From an uncultured Acidobacteriota bacterium (GTDB taxonomy: Bacteria > Acidobacteriota > Blastocatellia > RBC074): a stretch of DNA of 64,000 bases. The notes under the pieces were generated by a model, which saw only the letters and a list, made by a program, of their open reading frames with translations, was not told where the DNA came from and searched no databases. The position numbers were made by a program, and so were the translations under genes. The stretch is taken from positions 1,728,001 through 1,792,000 of the forward strand of contig CAWCKY010000006.1 in assembly GCA_963796275.1 (NCBI GenBank), written 5' to 3'. This document shows positions 1-28,138 of the stretch, piece by piece (positions within the stretch are counted from its first letter, which is position 1; the number at the start of each line of letters is the position of its first letter).

Positions 1-3000
1 TTCGGTGGCTTCCCGTTGGAGAAGCAGCGATGCCTCCGGGAGGACGGTTTTGATGGCCAGGGCTTCACCTCTCGTTCCAGGCAGCGGCTGGAAAACAATC
101 TGCGCCAGACCTCTTCTCCTCGATTGGCTCGCCCGTGGGCCTCCCGAGTTCCGAGCTCCTCTGGCGGGTGCAGCCGCTACGGTGCCGAATACGGGATCGG
201 CTATGACCAACGGAACGTTCTGGTTCGAAGGCGGTGTTCCCTGCAATCGCATGAGATCGCGGCCGCTGGTCAGATAGCTGATGGAATAGCGTTCGATCAG
301 ATACTGGTTATTTTCGTTCACCAGCGCGGCGAAGGGGATGAGATTGAGCAAACCGTCAGGCGCAATCAGCAGGCGGTCGATCTCGTCTCGCCCCCGTGGC
401 AACAGCGAACGCACCGGCTGCATGATTTTTTCGTCCACATCGCGTGCCAGTCGTTTGGCGTCCACGCGGTTACCGCGCAGTGCCTGGCGCCAGGCGCCTA
501 CTACCCGATCGATCGGAGCGGCTTCGCCGAGGTCAACCCAGCGCGGTTGGCCTTGCGGCGCGAGCAGATAGGCGAGGTAGCGCGGCGGCTGTCTATTCCC
601 GGTCTGCGGCTCTCGTGGAGTGTAGACGACAAACTCGATGAGGGCGCTTGCGGCGGGAAGCGCGGACTGAACGTCGTCGAGCGTGATCGGTTGCGTTTGC
701 GCGCAAAAATTGGCGCTGCGGGCGCTGAGTTTAACCTCCAAATTCTCCACCTCTACTTCGAGAGGTTCGCGCAGAGCCCGATATCTCTCGGGATTAGCTT
801 CATCCGGCTCTTTGAATTTGAGCGCTGCCAGCTGCGAGCGGGCCGCGATGAGCTTATCGAAGAGCTCACGATCCTGTTGTGTTGCGTGACGGCGGAAGGT
901 GGCGATCGTATCGGTCATCGCGTCGAGCCCTCGCCCTTTACGCCGCAACAAGGTGGTGAAGGCGAGCTTGAGCGCCTGCGGATCATTGGGTGCAGCGAGG
1001 CTGTGAAGCCAGAGCGTGAAGTCCGTTCGTTTCGCGAAGAGAGAGATATAAGCGAGTTTCTGGCGTTCTGATCCGAGGGATAGGTTGAGCGCGAGGTTGC
1101 GTTCGTCAACGGCGTTGGCCCGCGATAGATACATAACAGCCTGGGGGATATCATTTTTCAATGCGTAAAGCGCGGCAAGGCCGTTGAGTGCAACCGCGAC
1201 ATCGGGATGATCCGGCCCCTGCGATTTCTCCCAGATGGCCAGCGCGCGCAGGTACAGCGGTTCCGATTTTTCGTATTCGCCCCTTCTGCGGTAGAGGTCG
1301 GCGAGATTGTTGAGAGAATCAGCGACAGCAGGGTGTCCCGGCCCCAGAGATTTCTCTCTCATGGTCAGCGCGCGTCTTTGGAGAGGCTCAGCCTGTGCGT
1401 AATCGCCTGTATCGCTATAAATGCTGGCAAGATTGGCAAGATACCGGGCGGTTTCAGGATGTTCCATCCCCAGCGCTTTCTCCTGGATTGCCAGTGCGCG
1501 TCGAAGATGGCGCTCTGCCTTTGTGAATTCGCCTATTTCGATGTAAAGGACACCAATGTTGTTGAGAGAACGGCCGACATCAGTGTGTTCCGGCCCCAGT
1601 GCTTTTTCCTGAATTGTCAGCGCCCGTTGATATAACGATTCAGCCTGTACGTAGTCGCCTCTTCGTTTGTAAAGGATCGCGAGATTGTTATAAATGCCGG
1701 CTGTCGTAGAGTGGTCCGGCCCGAGTATTTTCTCCCAGATGTTCAGAGAGCGACGGAAGAACATCTCAGCCTTTGCATAGTCGCCCGTACTGCTATAGAG
1801 ATTGGCCAGATTGTTGAGAGATATGGAGACATCGGAGTGTTCCGGTCCAAGCGTCTTCTCGCGGGTGCGCAGCGCGCGCTGATAGATCGGTTCGGCTCGT
1901 GCGTAATCGCCCGTCTCGTAGTAAAGGTCGGCTATGTTGGTAAGGGAAGTCCCAAGCGAATGGTGTTCCGGTCCCAGCGCTTTCTCCTGTATGGCGACCG
2001 CGCGTAAAAGGAGAGGCTCAGCTTTACCGTATTCACCCCTTATTTTATAGATGACCGCGATGTTAGTGAGAGACCTGGCTACAACTGGATGTTCGGGCCC
2101 GAACGCCTTCTCACGGATGATCAGCGCGCGTTGATATAATTGTTCTGCCCTCGTTTGCTCGTCTCGATTAATATAGATATTGGCGAGATTGCCGAGGGAG
2201 GTTGCGACATCCGGATGCTCCGGCCCCAGCACTTTCTCCCGAATGGCAAGCGAGCGCACATAGAGCGGCTCGGCCTTCGTATCGTCGCCTCGGTCTCGAT
2301 AGAGGTTGGCAAGATTGTTGAGAGAAGTGGCGATATCGGTGTGTTCCGGTCCCAGCGCTTTCTCCTGTATGTTCAGCGCACGTTGAAACAAAGGCTCGGC
2401 CTTCGCGTAGTCGCCCATTTCGAGGTAGAAGTTGGCAAGATTGATGAAGAAATTGGCAACATCGGTGTGCTCCGGCCCCAGCGCTTTCTCCCTGATCGCC
2501 AGCGCTCTTAGATAAATGGGCTCAGCCTTCGCGTATTCGCCTCTCTCCTTATAGATGATTGCGAGGTTGTTGAGAGTGTTTGCGACATCAGGATGTTCCG
2601 GCCCAAGCTCCTTCTCCCTGATGATCAGTGCGCGCTGACCGAGCTGCTCGCCCTTGGTGTAATCGCCGCTTATCGAATAGAGGATGGCGAGATTGTTGAG
2701 ATCGGCAGCGACGTCGGGGTGATTCGCCCCAAGCACCTGTTCGTGAATCTTCAGCATGCGTTCAACCAAATTTCGCGCTTCACCATACTTTCCTGCACGT
2801 CCCAGTTTTTGGGACTCTGAATACATCTTTCGCGCCTCATACAAAGCATTGTCTCTCTCTGTTGCGGCGCGCAACTCCACGATTCGTATTTCGTACTGTC
2901 CAGCCGTCGCATTCTTATACTTCACCAGAATATCGATGCCATAGGTTCCCGCCGCTCCCGCCACCCAGGACACGCTCTCTTCCCCTCCCGCCCTGAGATC

Positions 3001-3315
3001 GGAGTCGAACTCTATGTACTGCCTGCCATCAGGCTCGAGCAGCCTCACCGCAACATCGATCCCTACTTGCTTGACGACTGCCTTAACAAATTGACCGGCG
3101 CTCAGTTCTATTTGATAACTATGTTGTTGCCCACCCGCCAGCACGCTCTTGATCGGCCGATCAGGTTCGATAACATCTCTTCCGGTTCGCGCAGCACCCG
3201 ATTCCTGAGGTGATTGCCGGATCGGTTCGAGCGAAAAAGCCGCAGTCACGGGCCTTTCTACTATCAGACCGAAGAATATGAGACTAACAATGATTCGAAA
3301 TACGATTAATTCCAC
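1..3315 (-). CDS. TPR-CHAT (caspase-like) protein 1; 3' end runs off the window
   Basis: Not in the ORF track because no stop lies in the window. My translation from GTG 3315 gives VELIVFRIIVSLIFFGLIV...VIEPDRPIKSVLAGGQQHSY. It has 13 LGPEHxD-type repeats at 126-bp spacing (~1206-2735) and reads EASLLLQREATE at the window edge, in the same frame as the start. Paralogous to 3343-7140. Confidence 0.88.
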   Translation of the reverse strand, partial: MELIVFRIIVSLIFFGLIVERPVTAAFSLEPIRQSPQESGAARTGRDVIEPDRPIKSVLAGGQQHSYQIELSAGQFVKAVVKQVGIDVAVRLLEPDGRQYIEFDSDLRAGGEESVSWVAGAAGTYGIDILVKYKNATAGQYEIRIVELRAATERDNALYEARKMYSESQKLGRAGKYGEARNLVERMLKIHEQVLGANHPDVAADLNNLAILYSISGDYTKGEQLGQRALIIREKELGPEHPDVANTLNNLAIIYKERGEYAKAEPIYLRALAIREKALGPEHTDVANFFINLANFYLEMGDYAKAEPLFQRALNIQEKALGPEHTDIATSLNNLANLYRDRGDDTKAEPLYVRSLAIREKVLGPEHPDVATSLGNLANIYINRDEQTRAEQLYQRALIIREKAFGPEHPVVARSLTNIAVIYKIRGEYGKAEPLLLRAVAIQEKALGPEHHSLGTSLTNIADLYYETGDYARAEPIYQRALRTREKTLGPEHSDVSISLNNLANLYSSTGDYAKAEMFFRRSLNIWEKILGPDHSTTAGIYNNLAILYKRRGDYVQAESLYQRALTIQEKALGPEHTDVGRSLNNIGVLYIEIGEFTKAERHLRRALAIQEKALGMEHPETARYLANLASIYSDTGDYAQAEPLQRRALTMREKSLGPGHPAVADSLNNLADLYRRRGEYEKSEPLYLRALAIWEKSQGPDHPDVAVALNGLAALYALKNDIPQAVMYLSRANAVDERNLALNLSLGSERQKLAYISLFAKRTDFTLWLHSLAAPNDPQALKLAFTTLLRRKGRGLDAMTDTIATFRRHATQQDRELFDKLIAARSQLAALKFKEPDEANPERYRALREPLEVEVENLEVKLSARSANFCAQTQPITLDDVQSALPAASALIEFVVYTPREPQTGNRQPPRYLAYLLAPQGQPRWVDLGEAAPIDRVVGAWRQALRGNRVDAKRLARDVDEKIMQPVRSLLPRGRDEIDRLLIAPDGLLNLIPFAALVNENNQYLIERYSISYLTSGRDLMRLQGTPPSNQNVPLVIADPVFGTVAAAPARGARNSGGPRASQSRRRGLAQIVFQPLPGTRGEALAIKTVLPEASLLLQREATE

Positions 3316-3342
3316 ACTATTGCCTTTTCATTTTTCCAAATA

Positions 3343-6300
3343 TTATCGCCGGCCGCCCAGGTTGGCCCATTCTCCCGACTGAATGAAAGCCGCCCAGTAG
3401 AACGGATGCAGCCGGTCTTTGTTCTTAAGCATTCGCAACTGCACCTGCCTCAGCCCTTCACTGCGCCCCTCGCCTCGCTGCAGCGCCCGGTAATAATCGA
3501 TCATCAATTCCTTCGCGCCCTGGTCGCTCACCGGCCAGAGGCTAATCACCTGACTCTCCGAACCGGCCAGAACCAGCGCGCGGCGCAGCCCCTGGACGCC
3601 CTCTCCGTTCTTGACCTCTCCCAGACCGGTATCGCAGGCCGAGAGCACCACCAGCTTGGTTCCATAAAGATCCAAGCCCGCCACCTCGAGCGCGGTCAAT
3701 ACACCGTCATCGTCACCATTCTTGCCACGATTGGCTCCCGATAGCGCCAGGCCCGAACGCAGCAATGGTTCCCCGAAATTCTCTGCCCACTTGCTCAACC
3801 GCAGGTTGGAGATCAGCAACGGGTCCAGATCGCCGGACGTCTCGGCCCTTGGGGTGGCCGTTGGGGTGGCCGTTGGGGTGGCCGTTGGGGTCTGCTGATC
3901 GCCGAGGAAAAATCCGTGGGTCGCGATGTGTAGAATGCGCGGCGCCCTCGTTCGCTTGATTGCCGCTTCGGTGGCTTGTTGCTGGAGAAGAAGCGAAGCA
4001 TCAGGCAGAATGTTTTTGATCGCCAGCGCTTCAGCCTTCGTACCCGGAAGCGGCCGGAAAAAAATCTGCCTTGTATGATCCTTCTGCTCTGTTTGATCGT
4101 CTTGACTCGGCTTCACAGCCCGCAAATCGATGCGAGAGTTTACCGTCCGCTTAGCTATTGTTTGGGTGGTAACTGTCTCCTTGCCGAAGATCGGATCGGC
4201 CACTACAAGCGGAGGGTCCTGACTCTCCGGTAAGTTTTGCAGCCGCAGCAGGTCGCGCCCGCTCGTCAGGTAGCTGATAGAGAAGCGCTCGATCAAATAC
4301 CTGTTCCGTTCATCCACCATCGCGGCAAACGGGATGAGGTTGAGCGGACCGTCCGGCGCAATCAGTAGATGGCGTATATTGCCGATTTTCGCCTGTCCCG
4401 ATTGTTTGCCCGGTTGCCCCGGTTGCCCCGGGTGCAGTGAAGATCGGACGGGCCGCATGATCTTTTCATCGACAACCCGTGCAAGTCGTTTCACATCGAC
4501 GCGGTTTCCGCGCAGAGAATGGCGCCAGGCATCTACAGCCTGATCAATCGGTGCAGCTTCGCCTAGTTCGACCCATCGAGGCTGGCCTTGCTGCGTGAGC
4601 AGATAGGCGAGGTAGCGCGCGGGCTGGCGCTCGCCGGTTCGCGGGTCTTGCGGATGGTAGACCACGAACTCGACGAGCGCGCCTCCCGCGGGAATCGCGG
4701 CCTGGACCGCAGCAAGTGTGACCGGTTGGGCTTGCGCTCGAAATCCGGCGCTCCGGACGCTGAGTTTACCTTCGAGCAGTTCGATCTGTTCCTCGAGCGG
4801 TTTGAGTTGCGTCAGTATCGTTTCATGGTTAGCTCCATCCGGCTTCTTGATTTTGAGCGCGGCCAACTGTGAGCGGGCATCGGTGAGTTTATCGAAGAGC
4901 TCCGTATCATCCGGCGTTGCATGCCGGCGAAAGGTGGCGATCGTATCTGTCATCGTTTCCAGCCCACGCGCTTTCCGGCGAAGCAGGGTAGTGAATGCCA
5001 GATTGAGCGCATGCGGATCGTTCGGTGCAGCCTGGCTCTGGACCCAGAGTGTGAAATCGGTCCGTTCAGAGAAGAGAGATAGATAAATCAGTTTCTGGCG
5101 TTCGGAACCGGCGTCGAGATTGAGCACGAAGTTGCGCTCGTCGACTGAGTTGCCGCGCGATAATATCTTAATGCCCTCGGCGGTATCCCCATTTTCAACC
5201 GAAAGTCGGGCCAGATCATAAAGAGCGGTACCGATATATGGGTGTTCCGGCCCGAGCGTTTTCTCCCAGATAGTCAGCGCGCGGCGATAGCCTGTCTCCG
5301 CTTTTGCAAATTTGCCGGTCGTTTTATAGAGACTAGCAAGGTTGAACAGAGAGTTAGCGACATCCGGATGTTCCGCGCCCAGCATCTTCTCCCTGATGGT
5401 CAGCGCGCGCCCATGTAGCTGCTCTGCCCGCGCATAGTCGCCGCGCGCCTTGTAGAGGGTTGCGAGGTTTGTGAGAGAATCGGCAACATCCGGATGTTCC
5501 AGGCCCAGCTTCTTCTCCCTGATGCTCAGCGCGCGCTCATATAACGGTTCTGCCTTCGCGTAGTCGTCTCGCGCCTTGTGCAGGATCGCGAGATTGGTGA
5601 GTGCATCAGCGACATCGGGATGCTCCAGGCCATACACTTTTTCCGTGATGGCAAGTGCGCGTTGATATAACGGTTCCGCATTCGCGTAGTCCCCTTTAAT
5701 GTAGTTGAGAGCCGCTAGATTACTGAGAGCTGTAGCAACATAGTGATGTTCCAGCCCGAGCGCTTTCTCCCATATTTTTAGTGCGCGCTGAGAGAGCGGC
5801 TCTGCCTTTGTATAGTCCCCTTTCTCTCGGTAGAAGCTGGCAAGGTTGTTAAGAGAAACTGCGACATCGGAGTGTTCCGGCCCGAGTAATTTCTCTCTGA
5901 TTGCAAGCGCACGTTGAAGGAGCGGCTCGGCTTTGGCGTAGTTGCCCTTATCACAATAGTTGTTGGCGAGATTGTTGAGACAGAGTGCGACGTAAGGGTG
6001 CACCGGCCCCAAGGCCTTCTCGGTGATAATTAGCGAGCGCTGATAGAATGGCTCAGCCAGTGCATACTCGCCCCCCTTCGAGTAGAGGGTGGCGAGATTG
6101 TAAAGTATGGCAGCAACTGTTAGGTGTTCAGGCCCGAGCGCTTTCTCCCTGATAGTCAGAGCGCGCTTGAATATCGGTTCGGCTTTGGCATAGTCCCCGT
6201 TAACCCAATGGATGGTTCCAATGTTATTGAGAGAAGTGGCGACATTTGGGTGTTCTGGCCCGAGCGCCTTCTCCCAGATGGATATTGAGCGTTGCTGGAG

Positions 6301-7140
6301 CGTTTCTGCTTTTGTGTAGTCGCCTTTTCGAAAGTAAAGTATCGCGAAACTATTGAGGGAATCGGCAACATTCGGATGTTCCGGCCCGAAAGCCTTCTCC
6401 CTGATAGCCAAAGCCCGCAAAAATGTCGATTCAGCCTTACTATATTCGCCCCTATCGCTGTAGTGGATGCCGAGATTGTTGAGAATTTCGCCGACCTCGG
6501 GATGTTCAGGACCCAGGACCTTTTCACGCAGCGCCAGTACGCGTTCACCCAATGGATGCGCTTCGTCATATTTTCCTGCGCGATTCAGCTTGTAGAACTC
6601 TAAATTCAGCTTTCGAGCTTCATGCAAAGTGCGGTCATTCTCATTAGCGACGCGCAGTTCAACTACTCGAATCTCGTATAATCCCGCAGCTCCATTCTTA
6701 TATTTCGCACTTACCTTAATCCGATAGGTGCCCGCCTCCGTCGCCACAAAAGTCATGGTCTCTGGACCATGCGTCCTGAATTCCGAGTCGATCTCGATGA
6801 TTTGCTTCTCATCGGGTCCAAATAATTGCACCATCGCATCGATCCCATCCTGCTCGACGAACACTTTCACGAACTGATCGGCGTTCAGCCTGATCCGGTA
6901 GGAATGCTCCTGCCCACCTGCCAGATCGCGCTTAATAGGCCGCCCCGGTTCGATCACCTCCTCGTCCGTGCCAACCGCTTCAGCTGATTGCGGTATCGTA
7001 CCGTGCGGGAAAACCTGCGGCGAGGTGGTAACAAGCAATAAACCGGAGAATAGAAAGCTGAACATCGCATTGGCTCCGGGGCCAACGACGACCCGCCGTT
7101 TCCGACCTAGGGCTGAGCGATCTGTACTCTGATGCGTCAT
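3343..7140 (-). CDS. TPR-CHAT protein 2 (N-terminal hydrophobic segment, PPC-like domain, ~11 42-aa TPRs, CHAT domain)
   Basis: 1265 aa with kinesin-light-chain-type LGPEHP repeats. CHAT motifs LHIATHG (His) and VVLSACDTG (Cys) are present, plus C-terminal HPFYWAAF. Confidence 0.93.
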   Translation of the reverse strand: MTHQSTDRSALGRKRRVVVGPGANAMFSFLFSGLLLVTTSPQVFPHGTIPQSAEAVGTDEEVIEPGRPIKRDLAGGQEHSYRIRLNADQFVKVFVEQDGIDAMVQLFGPDEKQIIEIDSEFRTHGPETMTFVATEAGTYRIKVSAKYKNGAAGLYEIRVVELRVANENDRTLHEARKLNLEFYKLNRAGKYDEAHPLGERVLALREKVLGPEHPEVGEILNNLGIHYSDRGEYSKAESTFLRALAIREKAFGPEHPNVADSLNSFAILYFRKGDYTKAETLQQRSISIWEKALGPEHPNVATSLNNIGTIHWVNGDYAKAEPIFKRALTIREKALGPEHLTVAAILYNLATLYSKGGEYALAEPFYQRSLIITEKALGPVHPYVALCLNNLANNYCDKGNYAKAEPLLQRALAIREKLLGPEHSDVAVSLNNLASFYREKGDYTKAEPLSQRALKIWEKALGLEHHYVATALSNLAALNYIKGDYANAEPLYQRALAITEKVYGLEHPDVADALTNLAILHKARDDYAKAEPLYERALSIREKKLGLEHPDVADSLTNLATLYKARGDYARAEQLHGRALTIREKMLGAEHPDVANSLFNLASLYKTTGKFAKAETGYRRALTIWEKTLGPEHPYIGTALYDLARLSVENGDTAEGIKILSRGNSVDERNFVLNLDAGSERQKLIYLSLFSERTDFTLWVQSQAAPNDPHALNLAFTTLLRRKARGLETMTDTIATFRRHATPDDTELFDKLTDARSQLAALKIKKPDGANHETILTQLKPLEEQIELLEGKLSVRSAGFRAQAQPVTLAAVQAAIPAGGALVEFVVYHPQDPRTGERQPARYLAYLLTQQGQPRWVELGEAAPIDQAVDAWRHSLRGNRVDVKRLARVVDEKIMRPVRSSLHPGQPGQPGKQSGQAKIGNIRHLLIAPDGPLNLIPFAAMVDERNRYLIERFSISYLTSGRDLLRLQNLPESQDPPLVVADPIFGKETVTTQTIAKRTVNSRIDLRAVKPSQDDQTEQKDHTRQIFFRPLPGTKAEALAIKNILPDASLLLQQQATEAAIKRTRAPRILHIATHGFFLGDQQTPTATPTATPTATPRAETSGDLDPLLISNLRLSKWAENFGEPLLRSGLALSGANRGKNGDDDGVLTALEVAGLDLYGTKLVVLSACDTGLGEVKNGEGVQGLRRALVLAGSESQVISLWPVSDQGAKELMIDYYRALQRGEGRSEGLRQVQLRMLKNKDRLHPFYWAAFIQSGEWANLGGRR
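3850..3890 (-). repeat. 12-bp tandem repeat encoding PTAT x3 in a CHAT loop
   Basis: ggggtggccgtt repeated three times; protein reads TPTATPTATPTATP. Confidence 0.85.
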
Positions 7141-7235
7141 GAGTTAACCTCAACTATTTTTAAGCTGAAAGGGCACGAGGAAATAGCCAGGATTGAAGCG
7201 AAGCGCAGCCGCCGGCAGGTATCAGTAAATCGCCG

Positions 7236-7345
7236 AGCCCTGAAATAGGTTTTAGAGCGGAATATAATCCCGCCTTTCAAGGCTCGTTGAATATTGGCGA
7301 TTTCGACCAGAGGCCGCGCTTCACTCCACCCCTGGCTGTTAACTT
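7236..7345. repeat. Degenerate REP-like palindromic element
   Basis: Intergenic inverted pairs gagccctgaaa...tttcaaggctc and ccagagg...cccctgg. Confidence 0.35.
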
Positions 7346-7416
7346 GCGCCCCCGTTGCGGCATCAAGTTGATCTGACCAGCTTTTAAATCGCTTTATGCA
7401 TTAACGATTTCCAGAA

Positions 7417-9267
7417 CTAACGCCGGCCATCCAGATTCGCCCACTCCCCCGACTGGATGAACGCTGCCCAGTAGAACGGATGTCGCCGCTGCTTGCTCCG
7501 CAGCATTCGCAACTGCACCTGCCTGAGCCCCTCGCTGCGTCCCTCTCCTCGCTGCAGCGCCCGGTAATAATCGATCATCAATTCTTTCGCACCTTCGTCG
7601 GTCACCGGCCAGAGGCTCATCACCTGGCTCTCGGATCCGGCCAGGACCAGCGCGCGCCTCAACCCCTGCACACCCTCGCCATTCTTGATGTCTCCCACTC
7701 CCGTATCGCAGGCCGAAAGAACCACCAGCCTGGTGCCCAACAAATCCAAACCGGCCACCTCCAGCGCGGTCAACATGCCATCATCGTTTCCCTTCATGTT
7801 GCGATTGGCTCCCGACAACGCCAGGCCAGATCGCAGCAGGGGTTCTTCGATGTGCGCGGCCCGTCTGCTCAGCCGCAAATCGGACCCGAGCGTGAAATTA
7901 TCATCAGAAATGTCGTTCGTCTCTGCCGGTTGGGCTGGTTGATCGTTGAAGAAGAACCCGTGAGTGGCGATGTGTAAGATGCGCGGCGCCCGTGCTCGTT
8001 TGAGCACAGCTTCGGTAGCCTCCTGTTGCAGGAAAACCGCAGCTTCCGGGATGACTGCCTTAATCGCCAGGGCTTCGGCCTTCGTCCCCGGCAGCGGCAG
8101 GAAAACGGGCTGCTCCAATTGCCCGGGCTGCCCCATTTGCCCCGGTTGTCCTGTCCGATGGATTGCGGGCGATATTCCAGACCTCTGAGCAGCTCGCTCA
8201 GAATCGGATGTCGCCGGACCGAAGAGAGGATCGGCCACAACCAGCGGAGCGTTCTGGCTCGGCGATGAGTCTTGCAGCCGCATCAGATCGCGCCCGCTCG
8301 TCAGGTAGCTGATAGTGTAGCGCTCGATCAGGTATTGATTCTGTTCGTCTACCAGCGCGGCAAGATGTTCCGGCCCGATAGCTTTCTCTTTAATGGCTAG
8401 CGCCCGGATAGACAGCGGTTCGGCGCTGGCGTAATCGCCTTTATTGAAGGAGATGTTCGCCAATAAGTTGAGAGAGGCAGCGACATCGGTATGTTCCGGC
8501 CCCAGCGTTTTCTCCTGGATGGCCAGGGCGCGACTCGACAGCGGCTCTATCTTAGGGTAGTCGCCCTTGTAATAATAGAAGACGGCCAGATCATGCAAAG
8601 CTGAGGCGAGATCTCGATCGAGCGGACCTGAGATTCTGTTTCGCGTCTCGATCACGCGCTCAAATAACGGGAGCGCTTCAGCATACTTGCCTGCGTCACG
8701 CAATCGGCGAGCCGCTTCGTTCAGCCTATGGGCATCCTGCAGGGCTCGATCGGTTTCTGTTGCGCTGCGCAGCTCATCGATCCGAATCTCATAATTCCCC
8801 GCGGGCGCCCAATTCTGTTCGGGTCGTATGATTAATCGGTATGTGCCCGTCGCTTCTGCCACCAGCGAGACCGGCTCATGCCCGCTGAGACTGCGTTCTG
8901 AGTCGAACTCCAATATCAGTTTCCCGTTCGGCCCGAACACCTGCACCGCCACATCGACACCATCGTTGTCGATGACTGTCTTCAGAAATTGATCAGCGGC
9001 TAAATTGATCTGGTAGCTATGCTGCTGCCCCCCCGCCAGTTGGCGATTAATCGGCCGTCCCGGTTCGATGACATCATTATCTGTCTGGACGCTGCTCGCC
9101 TCTCGTGTCGATTGGCGGATCGAACTGAGTGTATATGCCTCGGGCAGGGATGTAACCAATAACAGACTGGAGGGCAGAAGTATGATCATTGCCCTTGTTA
9201 TACTGCGATAAACGACCCGCCCTCTCCGGCCGTTTAAAGCCGAGTGACGTACACTCTGATAAAACAT
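7417..9267 (-). CDS. TPR-CHAT protein 3, internally deleted in frame
   Basis: 616 aa. After ~3 TPRs it jumps EKAIGPEHL|AALVDEQNQYLIERY at ~8361. HIATHG and LSAC are retained. Confidence 0.8.
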   Translation of the reverse strand: MFYQSVRHSALNGRRGRVVYRSITRAMIILLPSSLLLVTSLPEAYTLSSIRQSTREASSVQTDNDVIEPGRPINRQLAGGQQHSYQINLAADQFLKTVIDNDGVDVAVQVFGPNGKLILEFDSERSLSGHEPVSLVAEATGTYRLIIRPEQNWAPAGNYEIRIDELRSATETDRALQDAHRLNEAARRLRDAGKYAEALPLFERVIETRNRISGPLDRDLASALHDLAVFYYYKGDYPKIEPLSSRALAIQEKTLGPEHTDVAASLNLLANISFNKGDYASAEPLSIRALAIKEKAIGPEHLAALVDEQNQYLIERYTISYLTSGRDLMRLQDSSPSQNAPLVVADPLFGPATSDSERAAQRSGISPAIHRTGQPGQMGQPGQLEQPVFLPLPGTKAEALAIKAVIPEAAVFLQQEATEAVLKRARAPRILHIATHGFFFNDQPAQPAETNDISDDNFTLGSDLRLSRRAAHIEEPLLRSGLALSGANRNMKGNDDGMLTALEVAGLDLLGTRLVVLSACDTGVGDIKNGEGVQGLRRALVLAGSESQVMSLWPVTDEGAKELMIDYYRALQRGEGRSEGLRQVQLRMLRSKQRRHPFYWAAFIQSGEWANLDGRR

Positions 9268-9380
9268 CCGATTTCACCTCAAGTAATAACGCGAAATCAA
9301 AAGGCAAAAAGGACTATCAGTGATTGTTCATCGCCGCGTTAACGGCGTGAATTCATGATGTTGCCTTTTGATTTTTCCAC

Positions 9381-12300
9381 CTAGCGCCGGCCGTCCAGAT
9401 TCGCCCACTCCCCCGACTGGATGAACGCTGCCCAGTAGAAGGGATGCCGCCACTGCTTGCTTCGCAGCATTCGCAACTGCACCTGCCTGAGCCCCTCGCT
9501 GCGTCCCTCTCCTCGCTGCAGCGCCCGGTAATAATCGATCATCAATTCTTTCGCACCTTCGTCGGTCACCGGCCAGAGGCTCATCACCTGGCTCTCGGAT
9601 CCGGCCAGGACCAGCGCGCGCCTCAACCCCTGCACACCCTCGCCATTCTTGATGTCTCCCACTCCCGTGTCGCAGGCCGAAAGAACCACCAGCCTGGTGC
9701 CCAACAAATCCAAACCGGCCACCTCCAGCGCGGTCAACACGCCATCGTTGTCCCCCTTCATGTTGCGATTGGCTCCCGACAATGCCAGGCCAGATCGCAG
9801 CAGGGGTTCTTCGATGTGCGCGGTCCACTTACTAAGCCGTAGAGCGGGGATTATGGGCGGGTTTTCGTCAGAAATGTCGTTCGTCTCTGTTGGTTGGGCT
9901 GGTTGATCGCTGAAGAAGAACCCGTGTGTAGCTATGTGTAAGATGCGCGGCGCCCGTGCTCGTTTGAGCACAGCTTCGGTAGCCTCCTGTTGCAGGAAAA
10001 CCGCAGCTTCCGGGATGACTGCCTTGATCGCCAGGGCTTCGGCCTTCGTCCCCGGCAGCGGCCGGAAAACGATCCCTCCCTTGCCCCGATTGCCCCGTTT
10101 GCCCCGATTGTCCCAATTGCCCAGTCTGCCCCGGGTCGATTTGCCTTCCCGCTCGGCGGACGGATGGCGAGGTGCCAGACCTCTGAGCTCCTCGTTCTGC
10201 TGCGAATGTCGCACCGAAGAGAGGATCGGCCACAACCAGCGGAACGCCCTGTTCGGGCGGTGAGTCTTGCAGCCGCAGCAGATCGCGCCCGCTCGTCAGG
10301 TAGCTGATGGTGTAGCGTTCGATCAGGTATTGATTCTGTTCGTCTACCAGCGCGGCGAAAGGAACGAGGTTGAGCGAGCCGTCCGGCGCAATCAACAGGC
10401 GGCCGATCTCGCCCAACTCGGATTGTAACGATGACCTGATCGGCCGCATGATCATTTCGTCGACTTCGCGGGCCAGACGCTTGACGTCGATCCGATTCCC
10501 GCGCAAAGCCTGGCGCCAGCCGTCCACCGCTTTATCGATCGGAGCCGCTTCGCCGAGGTCTACCCAGCGGGGCTGACCACTCGGTGCGAGCAGGTAAGCG
10601 ATGTAGCGTGCCGGTTCGCCCTTCAGGGTCGGCAGCTTTTGCGGAGTATAGACGACAAACTCGATGAGGGCGCTGTTGGCGGGCAGCGCTGCCCTGACGG
10701 CGGCGATAGTGACCGGTTGGGTTTGTGCCCGGAACCCGGCGCTTCTCGCGCTGAGCTCACCTTCGAGCTTATCGACCACTTCTTCGAGCGGCTTCAGCCG
10801 TTCCGGGTTTATTTCGGGCTTCGCATCGTCCGTCTCCTTGAGTTTGAGCGCGGCCAACTGCGAGCGGGAATTGGTGAGCCGATCGAAAAGCTCTTTGTCT
10901 TCCGATGTAGCGTGGCGCCGGAAAGTTGCGATGGTGTCTGTCATCGCATCGAGCCCGCGCGCTTTCCGGCGGAGCATAGTAGTGAAAGCGAGATCGAGCG
11001 CCTGCGGATCGTTGGGTGCCGCCTTATTGTGGAGCGTTAGCGTGAAATCGGTCCGTTTAGAGAAGCCGGCCAGATAAGCGAGTTTCTGGCGTTCGGAACC
11101 GGTGGCGAGATTGAGCGCGAAGTTTCGTTCGTCGATGCTGGTGGCGCGCGCTTGAAATGCGACGGCTCGCCCGATATCACCTTTTGCCGCGTATAGCACG
11201 GCAAGGTTACTGAGATAATCGGCAATGTCCGGATGGTCCGGGCCTAACGATTTCTCGCCGATGGATAGTGCGCTGTGAGCGAGGGGTTCGGCAATTGCAA
11301 AGTCACCTTTCTTGGTGAAGAGTGCCGCGAGACTGCTGAGAGTATTAGCGACCTCGGGATGTTCCGGTCCGTGAGCCCTCACCCAGATGTTCAGCGTCCG
11401 CTCGTATAAGAGCTCGGCCTTCGGGTAATCGTCCTTGGTCACGTTGAGCTCGGCCAGATTGAAGAGAACGCGAGCGACATCCGGATGTTCCGGGCCCAGC
11501 GCGCGCTCACGAATGGAGAGGGCGCGCCCATAGTAAAGTTCCGCCTTCGCGTAGTCTCCCTTTCTCGTGCTGTAAATTGAAGCCAGATTATTGAGGATGC
11601 GGGCAACATCCGGGTGTTCCTGTCCCATCGCTTTCTCCATGATAGACAAGGAGCGCTCGTAAAGTGGTTCCGCCTTGGCGGAGTCGCCCTTAGCCCGGTA
11701 GAGGTTTGCGATGTTGGTGAGAAATTTTGCGACTACCGGATGATCTGACCCCAGCGCTTTCTCGTAGATGGCCAGTGCGCGGCTGTACAGCGGTTCAGCC
11801 TTTGCATACTCGCCTTTGGCCCGGTGGAGATTGGCGAGATTGTTGAGCGCGGAAGCGACATCAGTGTGTTCCTGGCCCAGCGCTTTCTCCCCAATGGTCA
11901 ACGCGCGCCTATAGTAGGACTCGGCTTTCGCATAATCACCTGTATCACTATATAGGTTGGCGAGATTATTGAAAGAAGCGGCGACATCAGGATGTTCAGC
12001 TCCCTGTGCCTTCTCCCTGATGGCCAGCGCCCGCTCATAGTATGACTCCGCCTTCGCGTAATCGCCCGTGGTCTTGTAAAGGCCCGCGAGGTTATTGAGT
12101 GTAGCAGCGATAATCGGATTTTCCGGCTTCAGCGATTTCTCCATGCTTGTCAGCGCACGCTGAAACAAGGGCTCCGCTTTCGCATATTCGCCAATTTCAC
12201 TGTAGAGGGAAGCGAGATTAAAGAGCGCACTCGCGAAACCGAGATGCTCCGGTCCCAGTACCTTTTCACAAATTGCCACCACTCGTTCGACCAATGGAAC

Positions 12301-12897
12301 CGCTTCATAATAGTGGCCGGCGCGAAACAGTTTGGCGTATTCGGTGTTTATCTTGCGCGCCTCATGCAACGCGCGGTCATTTTCCGTCGCGAGTCGCTGC
12401 TCCACTACCTGAATCTCGTATTGCCCGACCGCCGCATTCTTATATTTCGCCGCTACCTCAAGCCGGTAGATGCCCGGCTCTTCCGCCGCCCAGGAAACAT
12501 TCTCCTGCCCCTTAGTGCTTCTATCACCATCGAACTCTATGATCTGCTTGCCATCCGGCTTAATCAGTTTCACCACCGTATCTATCCCATCCTGCTTGAC
12601 GACAACCTTGAGAAACTGATCGCCGTTCAGTCTGATCTGATAGCTATGCTGTTGCCCGCCCGCCAACTCGCTTTTGATCGGCTCTCCCTGCTTGAGCGAG
12701 GGAAAATCCATCTCGGTCTTGCTGCTCCTCGCCTCTTTAGGCGTTTGCAGCATCCGAACGTGCGGCGCAGACTGAGTTGATGGTGTTATTAATAAAGCGG
12801 AAAGCAGTAATGAGATCGGGATTCTGGACAGGGCTCGATTCTCTGCCTGCCGTTTCCGGATTTCTGAACCCGAGTAATTTGCACTCTGACGAGCCAT
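9381..12897 (-). pseudogene. TPR-CHAT protein 4 with a single frameshift at ~10075 (real or sequencing error)
   Basis: ORF 9868-12897 has the PPC-like domain, ~9 TPRs and the first half of CHAT. ORF 9381-10235 continues IVFRPLPGT...HIATHG...LSACDTG...HPFYWAAF. Removing one G in AGGGATC joins the two. Confidence 0.85.
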
Positions 12898-13233
12898 GGA
12901 GGTCCCTCACATAGTTATAGGTCCGCGTCTCTAAATATGACGGCCGTATGTTGTCATGCTGACAGAGCGCGAATATACGGGGGTGCGTGAGTAGGCAAGA
13001 CTTTCCGCATAGTACAACGGAATTTAGCGCAAATCGAATCGGTTCGGTCCTTCCTATGCCGACTTTCTTCAAAACTTCCCAATTATTTTTGTCTTAGACT
13101 CAGAAAAAATATGCTTGGCGAGGGGATATTCCGATACAACAATTTAACAATCAATATGCCCGGCTTCTATTGAATGATTACAACTCGCTGATTTATCATC
13201 GCAACGCCCTTTCACTAAAATGAAAACTGGAAC

Positions 13234-14289
13234 ATGGTGAGAAAGCAGTCAGCAACGATTGATCCCTTGCTCGAACCACTACTGTCGCCTATTGGCGACG
13301 AGGAGATCGATCAATTTCTCTCACAACTGATTGTCAGGCACGCCGATCCGGTGATCAAAGGGATCATCAGCTATAAACTCCACTTGAATTCGCAGAATGG
13401 AATCGGGCAGCCCGATGCCTTTGACATTCATCAGGAAGTCATTGTGCAGCTGTTGGCGGCGTTCCGGCAGCTACGACTACAGCCGGCGGCCCACCCGATC
13501 AGCGATTTGCGCGGGCTGGCGGCAGTGATTACTCATCGCACTTGCTCGCGATGGATGCGGCAGCAGTTTCCCGAGCGGCACGCGTTTAAAAATCGCATAC
13601 ATTACCTGCTCGTACGCCACCGAAATTTCGCGGTCTGGCAGAGCGAGAATAAACGACTGACATCCGGCCTCGCGGTTTGGCAGGGGCGCAGGGACGTCGT
13701 AAACGAGAAGCAGCTCAAGGAACTTTCGGATGATGAAGCGCTGCTCGTCCGCATCCGGCTACTCAAATTCAGCAGGCAGGCGGATTGGAGCGGCACTTTT
13801 GATGCGATTTTCAACCGGCTCGGCGGCCCGATTGAGCTAGACAGGTTGGTCGGTTATCTGGCCGCGCTGCTCCATATCGAGGATAGACAGATCGAATCTA
13901 TCGATCAGCTCGATGATTCCTTCGAACCGGAGGATGCGAACAGGGAGCACGATGCGGGATGGCAGCTCGAAAAACGCAGCTTTTTGCAAAGACTTTGGGA
14001 AGAAGTGCAGCTACTTCCGCTCAATCAGCGTGCTGCGTTGTTACTCAACCTGAGAGACCAGGAAGGAGAAGGGTGTCTGCCGCTTTTTCCGGCTCTTGGG
14101 ATCGCGACGGTTCGTCAGATAGCGGAGGCGCTCGAGATGCGCGCGGAAACACTGGCTGAGATGTGGAACGGATTGCCGTTTGAAGACGCAAAGATTGCTG
14201 AATTGCTGCAATTGACGCGTCAACAGATCATTAACGCGCGAAAATCCGCGCGGGAGCGGTTGACCCGGAGGCTGAAAGGATTTATATAA
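13234..14289 (+). CDS. ECF-type sigma-70 factor with large internal insertions
   Basis: Sigma2-like DAFDIHQEVIVQLL...LRGLAAVITHRTCSRWMR and sigma4-like LWEEVQLLPLNQRAALLL...KIAELLQLTRQQIINARKSARERL. Followed by a zinc-finger membrane protein. Confidence 0.78.
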   Translation: MVRKQSATIDPLLEPLLSPIGDEEIDQFLSQLIVRHADPVIKGIISYKLHLNSQNGIGQPDAFDIHQEVIVQLLAAFRQLRLQPAAHPISDLRGLAAVITHRTCSRWMRQQFPERHAFKNRIHYLLVRHRNFAVWQSENKRLTSGLAVWQGRRDVVNEKQLKELSDDEALLVRIRLLKFSRQADWSGTFDAIFNRLGGPIELDRLVGYLAALLHIEDRQIESIDQLDDSFEPEDANREHDAGWQLEKRSFLQRLWEEVQLLPLNQRAALLLNLRDQEGEGCLPLFPALGIATVRQIAEALEMRAETLAEMWNGLPFEDAKIAELLQLTRQQIINARKSARERLTRRLKGFI

Positions 14290-14318
14290 ACGCGGTGAAT
14301 TAAGCGAGGAAACGCTGC

Positions 14319-15608
14319 TTGTCAGATCATCTTACGCAAAATCAGATTGAAAACTATAGCCGCCATTCGCTACCGGCTGCGGATTTGCTCTCCGTCTCCG
14401 ACCACCTCGCCTTCTGCGAGACCTGCCGCCAGCAGGTCCAATGGGCGCTCAATAGTGATGCTATCTATCTCGCGCTCAGATCCGAACTATTCGATCGTAC
14501 GCAACTCTTCTCACCTTCCACAGCTTACGGGCACCTGACATTTGAGCAGATCGTCGGAACAGTTGACGCAACCCTCGCCCACGATGAACTGCAGTCCGTC
14601 ACGGATCACTTGGTCTGCTGCCAACAATGTGTCATGGCAGTCGACGATCTGCGCGTATTTAAAGAGCAGATCGAACCCGAACTCGTCCTCCCGGATCAAC
14701 CTCCCGCTTTGGATTTAAAGAGCCTAACAGCCTGGCCTCGCTGGTTTACGTTGTGGCCCAAATCGCTGGTCTTCGGTTCGGCGCTGGCCGCGCTCTTGCT
14801 GGCTGTCTCCGGCTTGATGTTATGGCAGGCGTTCAAGGTAACAAAAAAGGATGCGCCGAGTACGGCCGTGATGACGCCCTCACCCGCTCCTTCAGCGCCT
14901 GTCCCATCCGGACCGAATCCTGGGGGCGCTACGGCAGTTGCGCTGCTCAACGACGGTGCGGGGCAGGTGAGGTTGGATCAGGCGGGCAAACTATCGGGCG
15001 TCGATCACTTGCCACCCGCTTATCAACAGATTGTAAAAAACGCGCTAACCAAACAGGAATTCGAAAGATCGCCGTTGCTGGCGGGATTGACTCCGAGGGG
15101 TATCACGCCGCGTGGCGGAGGGGATGAGCCGCGCGACAAGTTTTCATTGATCGAGCCGGTCAGGACTTTGGCCCTCTCAGAGCATCCGGATTTTCGCTGG
15201 TCGCGTTTGGTTGGTGCCTCGGTTTATGTGCTCGAGATATACGACGAAGAGTTCGACCTTGTGTCGACCAGTCCACGCATCGCCGGTCAGAGGTGGAGGG
15301 TGCGGCAACCGCTCAAACGTGGTGGCGTCTATTACTGGCAGGTAAAGGCGATCAAAGACGGCAGGGAAGTTGTCTCACCGCAACCGCCATCGCCCCAGGC
15401 GAAATTCCGGATTCTGGATGAGGCGAAGGCGAATGAGTTGGCGCGAGCGCGGCGAGCCTACGGATCCTCACGCCTGTTGCTCGGACTGCTGTATGCAGAG
15501 GCGGGATTGCTGGAAGAAGCCGAAGGACATTTTCGCGCCCTGCAGAAGGCGAATCCCGATTCCGCGATAGCCGCGCAATTGCTGCAGCAAGTACGGTCAC
15601 ATAAGTAA
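14319..15608 (+). CDS. Putative transmembrane anti-sigma factor with two HxxxCxxC zinc motifs
   Basis: HLAFCETC and HLVCCQQC motifs, TM segment LVFGSALAALLLAVSGLMLW, Pro-rich linker, beta-rich domain (GVYYWQVKA) and a C-terminal TPR-like helix pair. Confidence 0.8.
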   Translation: MSDHLTQNQIENYSRHSLPAADLLSVSDHLAFCETCRQQVQWALNSDAIYLALRSELFDRTQLFSPSTAYGHLTFEQIVGTVDATLAHDELQSVTDHLVCCQQCVMAVDDLRVFKEQIEPELVLPDQPPALDLKSLTAWPRWFTLWPKSLVFGSALAALLLAVSGLMLWQAFKVTKKDAPSTAVMTPSPAPSAPVPSGPNPGGATAVALLNDGAGQVRLDQAGKLSGVDHLPPAYQQIVKNALTKQEFERSPLLAGLTPRGITPRGGGDEPRDKFSLIEPVRTLALSEHPDFRWSRLVGASVYVLEIYDEEFDLVSTSPRIAGQRWRVRQPLKRGGVYYWQVKAIKDGREVVSPQPPSPQAKFRILDEAKANELARARRAYGSSRLLLGLLYAEAGLLEEAEGHFRALQKANPDSAIAAQLLQQVRSHK

Positions 15609-15842: not shown

Positions 15843-15851
15843 ATGTGTATC

Positions 15852-28127: not shown

Positions 28128-28138
28128 AAGGAAACATT

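Follow-up and report, generated by a model that had tools for sequence, protein, structure and literature searches.

A conserved sigma/anti-sigma/TPR-CHAT module of Acidobacteriota and its probable role as an envelope-to-gene signalling switch

CHAT proteases abound in bacteria of complex lifestyle and, to our knowledge, substrates are known for very few of them, the sole envelope example, DdvA, being a fusion. The window, by which we mean the whole 64 000-nucleotide stretch of DNA analysed here, comes from a soil acidobacterium, a member of a dominant and poorly studied soil phylum. At its left end a group of TPR-CHAT genes faces a sigma-like gene and an anti-sigma gene, which raises the question of whether the proteases act on this pair. 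We found that the conserved three-part module is real and recurs across Acidobacteriota, and as far as searches show it is undescribed in the literature. The sigma/anti-sigma/TPR-CHAT trio probably forms an envelope-to-gene signalling switch; the more specific reading, a three-component envelope signalling module in which CHAT is the site-1 protease that frees the sigma factor, has in our judgement about an even chance of being right. The parts of such a module would be an atypical ECF-like sigma factor, a single-pass anti-sigma factor with two zinc domains and at least one exported TPR-CHAT protease of the caspase fold. The corresponding features of the window are as follows.

1..3315, minus strand: CHAT1, with a PPC-like domain, about 14 TPRs of 42 aa, a scaffold and the start of the CHAT domain
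3343..7140, minus strand: CHAT2, 1265 aa, intact, with a hydrophobic N-terminus, a PPC-like domain, about 12 TPRs, a scaffold and a CHAT domain
7417..9267, minus strand: CHAT3, 616 aa, a deletion derivative with an N-terminal segment, a PPC-like domain, three TPRs and CHAT
9381..12897, minus strand: CHAT4 as a whole, in two reading frames
9868..12897, minus strand: N-terminal frame of CHAT4, with a signal-like segment, a PPC-like domain, about ten TPRs, a scaffold and the start of CHAT
9381..10235, minus strand: C-terminal frame of CHAT4, with the remaining CHAT domain and the His and Cys motifs
10081..10133: 9-bp tandem repeat encoding GQxGQ, at whose end the CHAT4 frame switches
12898..13233: divergent spacer of 336 bp between the CHAT4 ATG (12897) and the sigma ATG (13234), confirmed as originally described
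13051..13080, minus strand: degenerate copy (GGGAAGTTTTGAAG...CATAGGAA) of a promoter-like element, about 180 nt upstream of the CHAT4 ATG
13234..14289, plus strand: sigma-like protein, 351 aa, with sigma2 at about 10–125, an insert at about 126–240 and sigma4 at about 242–351
14319..15608, plus strand: anti-sigma protein, 429 aa, with two zinc-motif three-helix domains, a TM segment, a linker, a beta-sandwich and a helical end

CHAT1 to CHAT4 are four tandem minus-strand paralogs of the PPC-TPR-CHAT type. All four have the predicted hydrophobic N-terminus, PPC-like domain, 42-aa TPRs and CHAT domain, but two of them look damaged, CHAT4 by an apparent frameshift and CHAT3 by an apparent large internal deletion, either of which may come from the assembly. 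The N-terminal frame of CHAT4 is meaningful as far as position ∼10080 and is the wrong frame beyond it. In CHAT3 a TPR is joined directly to position 40 of the CHAT profile, which leaves this protein with no scaffold and without the beginning of CHAT; it is also devoid of LRGNRVDVKR, a segment predicted to touch the anti-sigma factor. Over its C-terminal 224 aa it shares 93% identity with CHAT4. The C-terminus of CHAT1 lies to the left of the window start, the whole protein having 1301 aa (G000:C6:1727413-1731315). All N-terminal domains match the PPC family PF04151 (E 2.4e-4, 8.5e-6, 4.6e-4 and 7.4e-3 for CHAT1 to CHAT4), the cut-off being reached by CHAT2 only (27.0 versus 25.9 bits), and the TPR units, 42 aa each, belong to the TPR_10/TPR_12 type, with a DNA period of 126 bp (3 x 42 aa). 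Matches to the CHAT family PF12770 exceed the gathering score of 24 bits in CHAT2 (274.7 bits, profile 2–288), CHAT3 (246.3 bits, profile 40–288 only), CHAT1 (83.3 bits, cut by the window end) and the N-terminal frame of CHAT4 (71.9 bits, profile 2–91, with the remainder in the other frame). Intact His and Cys motifs, earlier claimed for three copies, are seen in all four (HIATHG and LSAC, for CHAT1 beyond the window), and the predicted catalytic residues of CHAT2 are His1075 and Cys1169 of its CHAT domain. A search with the C-terminal 576 aa of CHAT2 gave no sequence match to any CHAT chain in PDB. Judged by identity among the paralogs, the presumed sensor parts (N-domain 55–58%, TPR 54–57%) diverge more than the presumed output parts (scaffold 69–71%, CHAT 75–78%).

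The protein encoded opposite the array had been called an ECF sigma factor, a designation that does not hold in its canonical sense. No Pfam family matches it even at E 10 (Sigma70_r2 and Sigma70_r4_2 included), and its score against TIGR02937 (E 8.8e-8, 31.9 bits) lies below the cut-off of 42.9 bits. An insert of ∼115 residues between sigma2 and sigma4, comprising two strands and four helices and conserved in 51 aligned homologues, rules out a canonical ECF factor with a short sigma2–sigma4 linker. When the predicted model (pLDDT 80.1) was compared with known structures by VIA-align, the best match was region 4 of SigmaE (Z 9.0, rmsd 1.8, 68 aligned), an N-terminal fragment of SigR was also matched (Z 8.2, rmsd 2.6, 78 aligned) and most of the 30 highest-ranking entries were sigma factors, although by the tool's own note values of Z below ∼13 are not decisive for helical proteins. 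Foldseek matches to the same model had E values of 0.035 or weaker.

The second gene encodes the zinc-type membrane anti-sigma factor of the original prediction as far as its motifs and topology are concerned, whereas its family scores are all below threshold. Two HxxxCxxC motifs (H29/C33/C36 and H97/C101/C104), both invariant in 67 homologues, precede a single TM segment (148–174), and their place in N-terminal helical domains marks the protein as a putative zinc-binding anti-sigma factor (ZAS), with zinc and sigma binding predicted. Family matches are faint, to Pfam zf-HC2 (E 0.58) and to the PDB profiles of RslA, DdvA-Nt and ChrR (E 0.05–0.45). Its model (pLDDT 83.2) has three-helix bundles at 7–58 and 75–122 and, after the linker, an ectodomain made of an FN3/Ig-like beta-sandwich (277–365; Foldseek E 4e-4 to 1e-3 against FN3 domains) and a TPR-like helical end (368–428). 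The putative family assignments of both proteins come from sub-threshold sequence scores and predicted folds, with Z values that are middling for helical proteins.

Analysis of the neighbourhoods of sigma homologues showed that the pair and the protease genes are linked well beyond this locus, in agreement with the original prediction. Among close relatives, the anti-sigma gene lies directly downstream of the sigma homologue in 75 of 80 loci. The Blastocatellia loci that could be evaluated were the 54 with at least 5 kb of downstream sequence: 42 of these have a CHAT gene no further than 5 kb from where the anti-sigma gene ends, and in 51 of the 54 the nearest downstream CHAT gene runs on the opposite strand. 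As an internal control, there were two CHAT HSPs in 570 575 upstream bases and 57 in 493 825 downstream bases. The linkage extends to distant loci elsewhere in the phylum, in other families (sigma homologues at 27–36% identity), 13 out of 20 of which have a CHAT gene nearby, with a gene order that varies between convergent and CHAT-sigma-anti-sigma. Among sigma-linked convergent CHAT ORFs with a length of 600 aa or more, all 37 have the catalytic His and Cys. The 12 evaluable loci (of 54) that have no CHAT gene indicate that the sigma/anti-sigma pair can be retained where no protease gene adjoins it. In the genome from which the window comes, CHAT sequence occurs within 5 kb at four of the six sigma paralog loci; a frameshifted anti-sigma paralog lies to the left of the array. 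The arrangement in the window, with divergent upstream genes of the PPC type, is atypical, as an upstream CHAT match occurs in only two of the 80 loci of relatives.

Both partners are predicted to be extracytoplasmic, since the CHAT proteins have signal-peptide-like N-termini and the C-terminal domain of the anti-sigma factor follows its single TM segment, ahead of which lie the two zinc motifs of the cytoplasmic anti-sigma type; the compartments thus do not speak against the predicted encounter. Each of the window CHAT proteins has an N-terminal hydrophobic stretch of ∼13–20 residues, preceded by several basic residues in CHAT2, CHAT3 and CHAT4, whereas CHAT1, with the GTG as its called start, has a single Arg there. 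Of the full-length convergent CHAT ORFs of relatives, 27 out of 36 pass a crude rule that asks for an h-region and, after it, a small-x-small site; the typical N-terminus is M..FR..L.LL.LSLSLI.PALAQS, with clear ALA-Q type sites, and the segments of the window copies resemble these.

Complex prediction, suggested with the original prediction, supports binding of the CHAT region of CHAT2 to the anti-sigma ectodomain at the level of a model. CHAT2 600–1264 with anti-sigma 177–429 gave a complex score of 0.69 (0.67, 0.69 and 0.70 in separate runs), compared with 0.00 for the best of three controls. Of 157 solved complexes 116 attain the mark used for this score, as do 2 of 215 mismatched pairs, counts that are rough for predictions made with own alignments. 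The runs share at least 61% of contacts, with partner pLDDT of at least 78. On CHAT2 the predicted contacts (877–884, 945 and 1240–1244, numbered without Met1) fall in the first CHAT segment and the C-terminal end, away from the His/Cys dyad; they exclude the catalytic residues, and the model therefore shows docking with no substrate in the active site. On the anti-sigma factor ∼8 of 15 contacts are conserved positions, compared with ∼38 of 89 in the rest of the sandwich, so that contacts are not clearly more conserved.

If the site-1 reading is correct, an exported TPR-CHAT protein would dock on the anti-sigma ectodomain through its CHAT domain, a protein or peptide ligand bound at the TPR/PPC part would activate the His-Cys dyad, and CHAT would then cut the anti-sigma factor outside the membrane, after which a site-2 protease of the M50 family would free the sigma factor. 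The genome has 12 matches to M50 site-2 protease genes, the best at 188 bits; ligand gating, cleavage and sigma release are inferred steps. In the window, the divergent PPC-type array of four paralogs takes the place of the usual single convergent CHAT gene. The idea that several sensors converge on one anti-sigma factor is weakened because two of the four look defective, and it persists for the two intact-looking copies, which could serve as alternative sensors.

The main competitor, possible in our view but with the chances clearly against it, is that the CHAT genes are output only: the pair would sense something else through its FN3/TPR-like ectodomain, and the TPR-CHAT genes, encoding exported proteases for defence, competition or surface remodelling, would be its main regulon with no role in release. 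It draws on a conserved three-block element, (G)GAAGTTGCYGAAC-N9-10-WTATTAC-N8-GAAATTTTT, located ∼100–120 nt upstream of the convergent CHAT genes of relatives, where GAAGTTG occurs in 21 of 33 CHAT upstream regions. A regular expression for the element matches 57 times in the 80 loci, always on the CHAT strand, and six times in the entire 9.46-Mb genome of the window. The element reads like the −35/−10 pair of an alternative sigma factor and suggests that CHAT genes may be targets of the sigma factor, also or only; genes that adjoin ECF sigma factors are often their targets. Regulators and targets are indistinguishable from context, according to the ECF classification (PMC7826278). A role of CHAT as an output of the sigma factor fits the element, but target status is compatible with an additional activator role, as positive feedback. 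The output-only explanation also leaves unaccounted for both the controlled complex prediction (0.69 versus 0.00) and the linkage that survives shuffled gene order, CHAT-sigma-anti-sigma operons included. Moreover, upstream of the window CHAT genes the element is absent except for the one degenerate copy, which is weak evidence because a scan of the window that allowed two mismatches did no better than chance, and the sigma genes have a different upstream motif, so that autoregulation from the same promoter is not evident. An orphan copy of the element lies to the left of the array.

An improbable alternative is a non-proteolytic partnership, in which the anti-sigma ectodomain binds CHAT as an inhibitor, chaperone or monitor of export or activity, and any sigma release follows from lost binding instead of cleavage. 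The predicted interface away from the dyad would suit it, as would the resting, incomplete active site of the DdvA structure (PMC11506125), but retention of the dyad in 37 of 37 linked ORFs argues for selection on catalysis. Least probable, and to our mind quite unlikely, is that a PPC-type array landed by chance beside a pair whose own convergent CHAT gene was already gone, with no functional tie. This would be in line with the ∼16 PPC-type CHAT genes in the genome, most of them far from any sigma gene (∼11 beyond the window adjoin none), with the rarity of upstream CHAT genes among relatives and with the rearranged look of the surroundings, where the orphan element and the frameshifted anti-sigma paralog are found. 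However, a PPC-type CHAT gene follows the anti-sigma gene immediately at three loci of relatives (L022, L070 and L073) and at C1:1297638-1300761 of the same genome, the complex prediction passed with a PPC-type protein of the window, and with ∼40 CHAT HSPs in 9.46 Mb a chance match within 5 kb is expected at only ∼2% per locus.

Several known systems couple such components. In the type III-E CRISPR craspase, which is cytoplasmic, RNA-guided and bound to Cas7-11, the TPR-CHAT protease Csx29 reportedly cleaves Csx30, a protein linked with a sigma factor. The likeness lies in a TPR-CHAT protease coupled to a sigma/anti-sigma-like pair; the locus described here differs in its export signals, its membrane-bound anti-sigma factor and the absence of cas genes from the scanned ORFs. 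Its predicted independence of CRISPR is borne out to that extent: no CBASS or CRISPR genes were found among the scanned window ORFs, and PADLOC returned a generic TPR match only. Classical regulated intramembrane proteolysis of anti-sigma factors (RseA/DegS/RseP, RsiW/PrsW) likewise combines a single-pass anti-sigma factor with an extracytoplasmic site-1 cut and an M50 site-2 cut, and M50 genes are present here. The candidate site-1 protease of the present module is of another kind, a cysteine protease of the caspase fold that carries a TPR sensor and whose gene lies beside that of its presumed substrate.

The closest known system, which the original prediction did not mention, is DdvA/DdvS of Myxococcus xanthus. 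As described in the report on it (PMC11506125), DdvA is a transmembrane zinc anti-sigma factor fused to a periplasmic TPR-CHAT and DdvS is its ECF sigma factor, the fused type being reported there only in Myxococcota and one Comamonas. The two systems share, for the present one by prediction, a zinc-motif cytoplasmic domain, a single TM segment, an extracytoplasmic TPR-CHAT with a His-Cys dyad, sigma coupling and the proposed logic, in which CHAT makes the site-1 cut and a site-2 protease of the RseP type acts after it; a faint echo is the match of the anti-sigma profile to the N-terminal domain of DdvA (8rlz_A, E 0.17). Here, in Acidobacteriota, TPR-CHAT is instead a separate exported protein in one to four copies, the 429-aa anti-sigma factor has two zinc motifs, an FN3/TPR-like ectodomain of its own and no CHAT domain, and the sigma factor, unlike DdvS, has a large insert. 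No fused anti-sigma relative of 752–2145 aa was found, which is weak evidence. ECF54 sigma factors also have CHAT genes in a conserved context, together with carboxypeptidase and subtilase domains, and proteolytic control has been proposed for them; they are described as having no anti-sigma factor (PMC8999054), which sets them apart from the present loci with their anti-sigma gene in 75 of 80.

The module would be a natural split version in which protease and presumed substrate are two proteins that can be mixed, mutated and titrated, and caspase-like gating of trans-membrane sigma release is therefore directly testable. A bolder view, which we offer tentatively and think rather doubtful as a whole, is of a phylum-wide trans-envelope pathway: ligand-gated secreted TPR-CHAT would be the dedicated site-1 protease of the double-zinc anti-sigma factor, freeing a new class of sigma factor whose insert helps to read the three-block promoter that drives the protease genes, and the window array would be a diversifying sensor repertoire feeding one switch. 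The analysis also defines a large, Pfam-invisible putative sigma family with an inserted domain, a candidate cognate promoter and a two-zinc-domain anti-sigma partner, all of them in Acidobacteriota. A precomputed Pfam domain is lacking in each of the 120 best sigma homologues, PF04542 appears on 19% of the members of one Atlas cluster of homologues, and at E ≤ 0.001 the family comprises at least 2247 clusters among 8000 scored candidates.

The window corresponds to C6:1728001–1792000 of its own genome (G000; 9.46 Mb in 7 contigs), and the genes that concern us here lie at its left end:

1..3315, minus strand: CHAT1, cut at the window start (1301 aa in the genome copy)
3343..7140, minus strand: CHAT2, 1265 aa
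7417..9267, minus strand: CHAT3, 616 aa
9381..12897, minus strand: CHAT4, with a frame change inside
13234..14289, plus strand: sigma-like protein, 351 aa, beyond a 336-bp spacer from CHAT4
14319..15608, plus strand: anti-sigma, 429 aa

Gene calls and Pfam searches bore out the original prediction of four tandem paralogs with an N-terminal hydrophobic segment, TPRs and a CHAT domain. All four showed very strong matches to TPR_10/TPR_12 (42-aa kinesin-light-chain type) and carried CHAT (PF12770), and TRF detected a 126-bp periodicity in the DNA of the array. The hydrophobic stretch (∼ 13–20 residues) is preceded by basic residues in CHAT2–CHAT4 and by one Arg in CHAT1. The proposed PPC-like domain held up in part: the N-domains, scanned alone, matched PF04151 in all four proteins (E = 2.4e-4, 8.5e-6, 4.6e-4 and 7.4e-3 for CHAT1–CHAT4), but only that of CHAT2 reached the cut-off. 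The His/Cys motifs (HIATHG and LSAC; His1075 and Cys1169 in CHAT2), claimed to be intact in three copies, are present in all four, CHAT1 included. A PADLOC run on the window returned nothing beyond one generic TPR model. In sequence searches of the PDB, the C-terminal 576 aa of CHAT2 retrieved no CHAT structure (that is, no DdvA, Csx29 or separase) and full-length CHAT2 retrieved TPR proteins only.

Identity among the window paralogs is 54–58% in the N-domain and TPR part, 69–71% in the scaffold and 75–78% in the CHAT domain, and the number of TPR repeats varies (∼ 14, 12, 10). Sensors that have diversified while sharing one output would fit this pattern; repeat proteins in general tend toward the same divergence pattern. 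Two copies are not intact as assembled, owing to either real lesions or assembly errors. The reading frame of CHAT4 shifts where a 9-bp GQxGQ repeat (10081–10133) ends, and in CHAT3 the third TPR is joined straight to CHAT profile position 40; the last 224 residues of CHAT3 are 93% identical to CHAT4 (DNA 88% over 984 bp). Among public reads, only two runs contained 8–10% of the words sampled, and RNA runs were absent from the list; the resulting contigs were short and mostly those of relatives, and none spanned the CHAT4 frameshift or the CHAT3 deletion at high identity. Repeats of 9 bp or 18 bp coding for GQ(T/P/S)GQ occur in the CHAT-domain linkers of CHAT2 (4409–4435), CHAT3 (8106–8142) and CHAT4 (10081–10133), and a repeat of this type (GQTGQTGQTGQAGQTG) is also found within the insert of the sigma paralog on contig C2 (locus L004).

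The 351-aa protein had been called an ECF sigma, and this assignment needs qualification. It gave no Pfam match even at E = 10, and its match to TIGR02937 (sigma70-ECF; E = 8.8e-8) scored 31.9 bits, below the cut-off of 42.9, covering residues 30–346 against a 165-position profile. Its AlphaFold model, built with 51 homologues (pLDDT 80.1), is sigma-like at both ends: in VIA-align, residues 245–351 matched SigmaE region 4 best (Z 9.0, rmsd 1.8, 68 aligned) and residues 18–109 an N-terminal fragment of SigR (Z 8.2, rmsd 2.6, 78 aligned). Sigma factors made up almost all of the top 30 VIA-align rows and of the Foldseek list, yet the latter matches had E-values of 0.035 or weaker. Between the two domains lies a conserved insert of ∼ 115 residues with a faint, non-significant likeness to the N-terminal domain of RNAP delta (E = 0.12). 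Thus, judging from profile scores and predicted folds, the protein is an ECF-like sigma with an insert and not a canonical ECF. The family comprises at least 2247 clusters at E ≤ 0.001 (among 8000 scored candidates), and none of the best 120 homologues carries a Pfam domain; homologues are named 'hypothetical' or generic sigma-24/sigma-70, and the Atlas clusters are Acidobacteriota 'hypothetical protein'.

The gene next to it encodes a probable membrane anti-sigma, as proposed. The protein has a single TM segment (148–174) and two HxxxCxxC motifs, each invariant across 67 homologues; anti-sigma models match it weakly, and its PDB matches to the zinc anti-sigmas RslA, DdvA-Nt and ChrR have E-values of 0.05–0.45. 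In the structural model (pLDDT 83.2), a pair of three-helix bundles comes before the TM helix, which a flexible linker connects to an FN3/Ig-like sandwich (277–365; Foldseek E = 4e-4 to 1e-3 against FN3 domains) followed by a TPR-like helical end. A flexible loop at 246–276 is conserved, with the consensus L-x-R-P-x-S-S-L-M-G. Immediately downstream of CHAT1 comes a second anti-sigma paralog (C6:1725357–1726665, minus strand), 55% identical, in two frames and not accompanied by a sigma gene; the CHAT array thus has anti-sigma genes on both flanks. The paralog is followed, in the region to the left of the window (L100, G000:C6:1723000–1728000), by a gene for a 589-aa Ser/Thr protein kinase (Pkinase, E = 6e-37).

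Analysis of the neighbourhoods of sigma homologues, a check suggested in the original prediction, showed that linkage to both CHAT and anti-sigma genes is widespread. The six sigma paralog loci of the own genome have a CHAT sequence within 5 kb (four loci), 22 kb off (one) or not at all (one), and the anti-sigma is missing from one of the six. A search with an alignment of four closer sigma paralogs, taking one genome per species, yielded 80 loci from Blastocatellia/Pyrinomonadaceae MAGs of Acidobacteriota, and in 75 of them the anti-sigma directly follows the sigma. For 54 loci the sequence covers a full anti-sigma plus at least 5 kb more downstream; a CHAT domain was found within 5 kb past the anti-sigma in 42 of them and was absent in 12. 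In 51 of 54 loci, the CHAT closest on the downstream side is encoded on the opposite strand. Where at least 1.5 kb of downstream sequence is available (64 loci), the CHAT match begins no more than 300 nt past the anti-sigma stop in 31. As a control, upstream flanks contained 2 CHAT HSPs in 570,575 bases, as against 57 in 493,825 bases downstream. Since these 80 loci are kin and their counts overstate independence, the phylum was also sampled. The sigma profile is present in 20 of 301 genomes, own genome included, from several families. Among 20 distant loci retrieved (sigma identity 27–36%), a CHAT gene is nearby in 13, arranged either convergently behind the anti-sigma or as CHAT-sigma-anti-sigma on a single strand; two of the seven loci without one are limited by a contig end. 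Linkage that persists through gene-order reshuffling is the usual mark of a functional module, and we consider it highly probable that CHAT, sigma and anti-sigma form one.

The convergent CHAT proteins, that is, those encoded behind the anti-sigma on the opposite strand in the relatives, have textbook-like signal peptides (e.g. M..FR..L.LL.LSLSLI.PALA-QS); of 36 full-length ORFs, 27 satisfied a crude signal-peptide rule, and several that failed it resemble them on visual inspection. Given these signal peptides and the topology of the anti-sigma, an extracytoplasmic location is predicted for the protease as well as for the C-terminal domain of the anti-sigma, and not two different compartments. 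Modelling of CHAT2 (residues 600–1264, 14-row alignment) with the anti-sigma ectodomain (residues 177–429, 67 rows), suggested in the original prediction, gave a complex score of 0.69 (runs 0.67, 0.69 and 0.70), with at least 61% of contacts in agreement between runs and partner pLDDT of at least 78; none of three controls scored above 0.00. Of 157 solved complexes, 116 attain the mark used for this score, as do 2 of 215 mismatched pairs; with custom alignments these counts are only a rough guide. As a prediction, the model supports binding of this CHAT2 region to the anti-sigma ectodomain. Predicted contacts fall in the anti-sigma sandwich (E306, Y308, 310–314, 339–341, 352, 355–356 and 360) and, in CHAT2, in GNRVDVKR (877–884) and KDRLH (1240–1244) near the C-terminus (submitted numbering; ORF numbers are +1); CHAT3 is without the first of these segments. 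Conserved residues are not clearly more frequent at the anti-sigma interface of the model than elsewhere in the sandwich, so conservation is left out of the support for binding. The His/Cys dyad is absent from the CHAT2 contacts; what the model depicts is thus a docked state, with no substrate placed in the active site.

A conserved three-block element of ∼ 50 nt, (G)GAAGTTGCYGAAC-N9-10-WTATTAC-N8-GAAATTTTT, is found upstream of the relatives' convergent CHAT genes (GAAGTTG in 21 of 33 regions). Its regex matched 57 times in the 80 loci (L009–L088, e.g. L015:15554, L028:15558, L046:12538 and L079:11117), always opposite to the sigma strand, versus 6 times in the 9.46-Mb own genome. In six loci it lies within the sigma/anti-sigma spacer, antisense to sigma. 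Most CHAT-less loci retain an orphan element directly behind the anti-sigma, with a terminator or what is left of a CHAT signal-peptide ORF after it, a pattern suggestive of repeated loss of the CHAT gene. Another orphan (C6:1727149) is found outside the window, 852 nt from its left edge, between the frameshifted anti-sigma paralog and the CHAT1 terminator. Scanning the window with 2 mismatches gave 4 matches where 3.0 were expected, and no CHAT gene has one of them upstream; the sole copy near one is a degenerate element ∼ 180 nt upstream of CHAT4. With a loose pattern, CHAT4 was also the only one of 19 own-genome CHAT entries (16 PPC-type, 3 convergent-type) with an upstream match; an additional match (C3:1544447–1547215) is inside an ORF. 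Some 25 relatives (L009–L032 and others) have a separate conserved motif 90–210 nt before the sigma start, GGATTGC-N18-TTAGATTG (also written GATTTCGGATTGC-N18-(GGT)TTAGATTGTTGC), which resembles a housekeeping-type −35/−10 pair and is absent from the window.

We propose that the exported TPR-CHAT protein would dock on the anti-sigma ectodomain and, upon ligand binding by its TPR/PPC part, would make the site-1 cut, after which an M50 site-2 protease would act; the own genome has M50 genes. We give this mechanism as a whole an even chance of being correct. The three-block element is a candidate cognate promoter of the sigma; if it is, the CHAT genes are sigma targets, which favours a feedback loop or a purely output role for CHAT, the latter possible but rather doubtful in our view. 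A partnership of CHAT with the anti-sigma that involves no proteolysis is unlikely; His and Cys are kept in all 37 sigma-linked convergent CHAT ORFs. Very unlikely, finally, is chance adjacency of this particular CHAT array. The usual linked CHAT belongs to a different TPR-CHAT subfamily (∼ 28% identical in the CHAT domain, without a PPC domain), and a PPC-type CHAT replaces it in three relatives' loci (L022, L070 and L073) and in the own-genome locus on contig C1.

Work on type III-E craspase reportedly couples a cytoplasmic TPR-CHAT protein to a sigma-linked substrate. The closest precedent is DdvA/DdvS of Myxococcus, where the periplasmic part of the zinc anti-sigma is itself a TPR-CHAT protein, proposed to cleave itself in trans before RseP acts (PMC11506125). 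Here, in contrast, the protease is encoded by a separate gene, and no relative was found in which the anti-sigma is longer and fused, which is weak evidence; that paper reports the fused type from Myxococcota and one Comamonas only. ECF54 sigmas are described as having CHAT and subtilase neighbours and no anti-sigma (PMC8999054), unlike the 75/80 loci with an anti-sigma directly downstream. The literature covered, which included work on DdvA, craspase and ECF54, yielded no account of a separate exported TPR-CHAT protein tied to a sigma/anti-sigma pair in Acidobacteria.

Further into the window, another gene for a sigma-like protein (282 aa, TIGR02937 E = 1.5e-17, Cys-rich N-terminal extension) comes before one for an exported, PA14-containing S8 subtilase (17667–22269), and a truncated copy of the sigma N-terminus (29066–29335) before that of a second S8-PA14-fn3 protease (29066–33132). 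These cassettes recall the protease-rich context of ECF54. Between them (22755–28522) are a 1790-aa RHS-repeat protein and a small downstream ORF (127 aa), which look like a polymorphic toxin and its immunity gene. An APH(6)-type aminoglycoside/hydroxyurea kinase homologue (16428–17129; PF04655, E = 9.5e-76) may be N-terminally truncated, as the match begins at profile position 30. Genes of the umuD and umuC type are normally adjacent. Here the UmuD-like S24 peptidase (15819–16262) and the UmuC-like polymerase (IMS family, 39375–40649) are 23 kb apart, and the DNA between them, with the kinase fragment, the sigma-subtilase cassettes and the RHS gene, may be an insertion.
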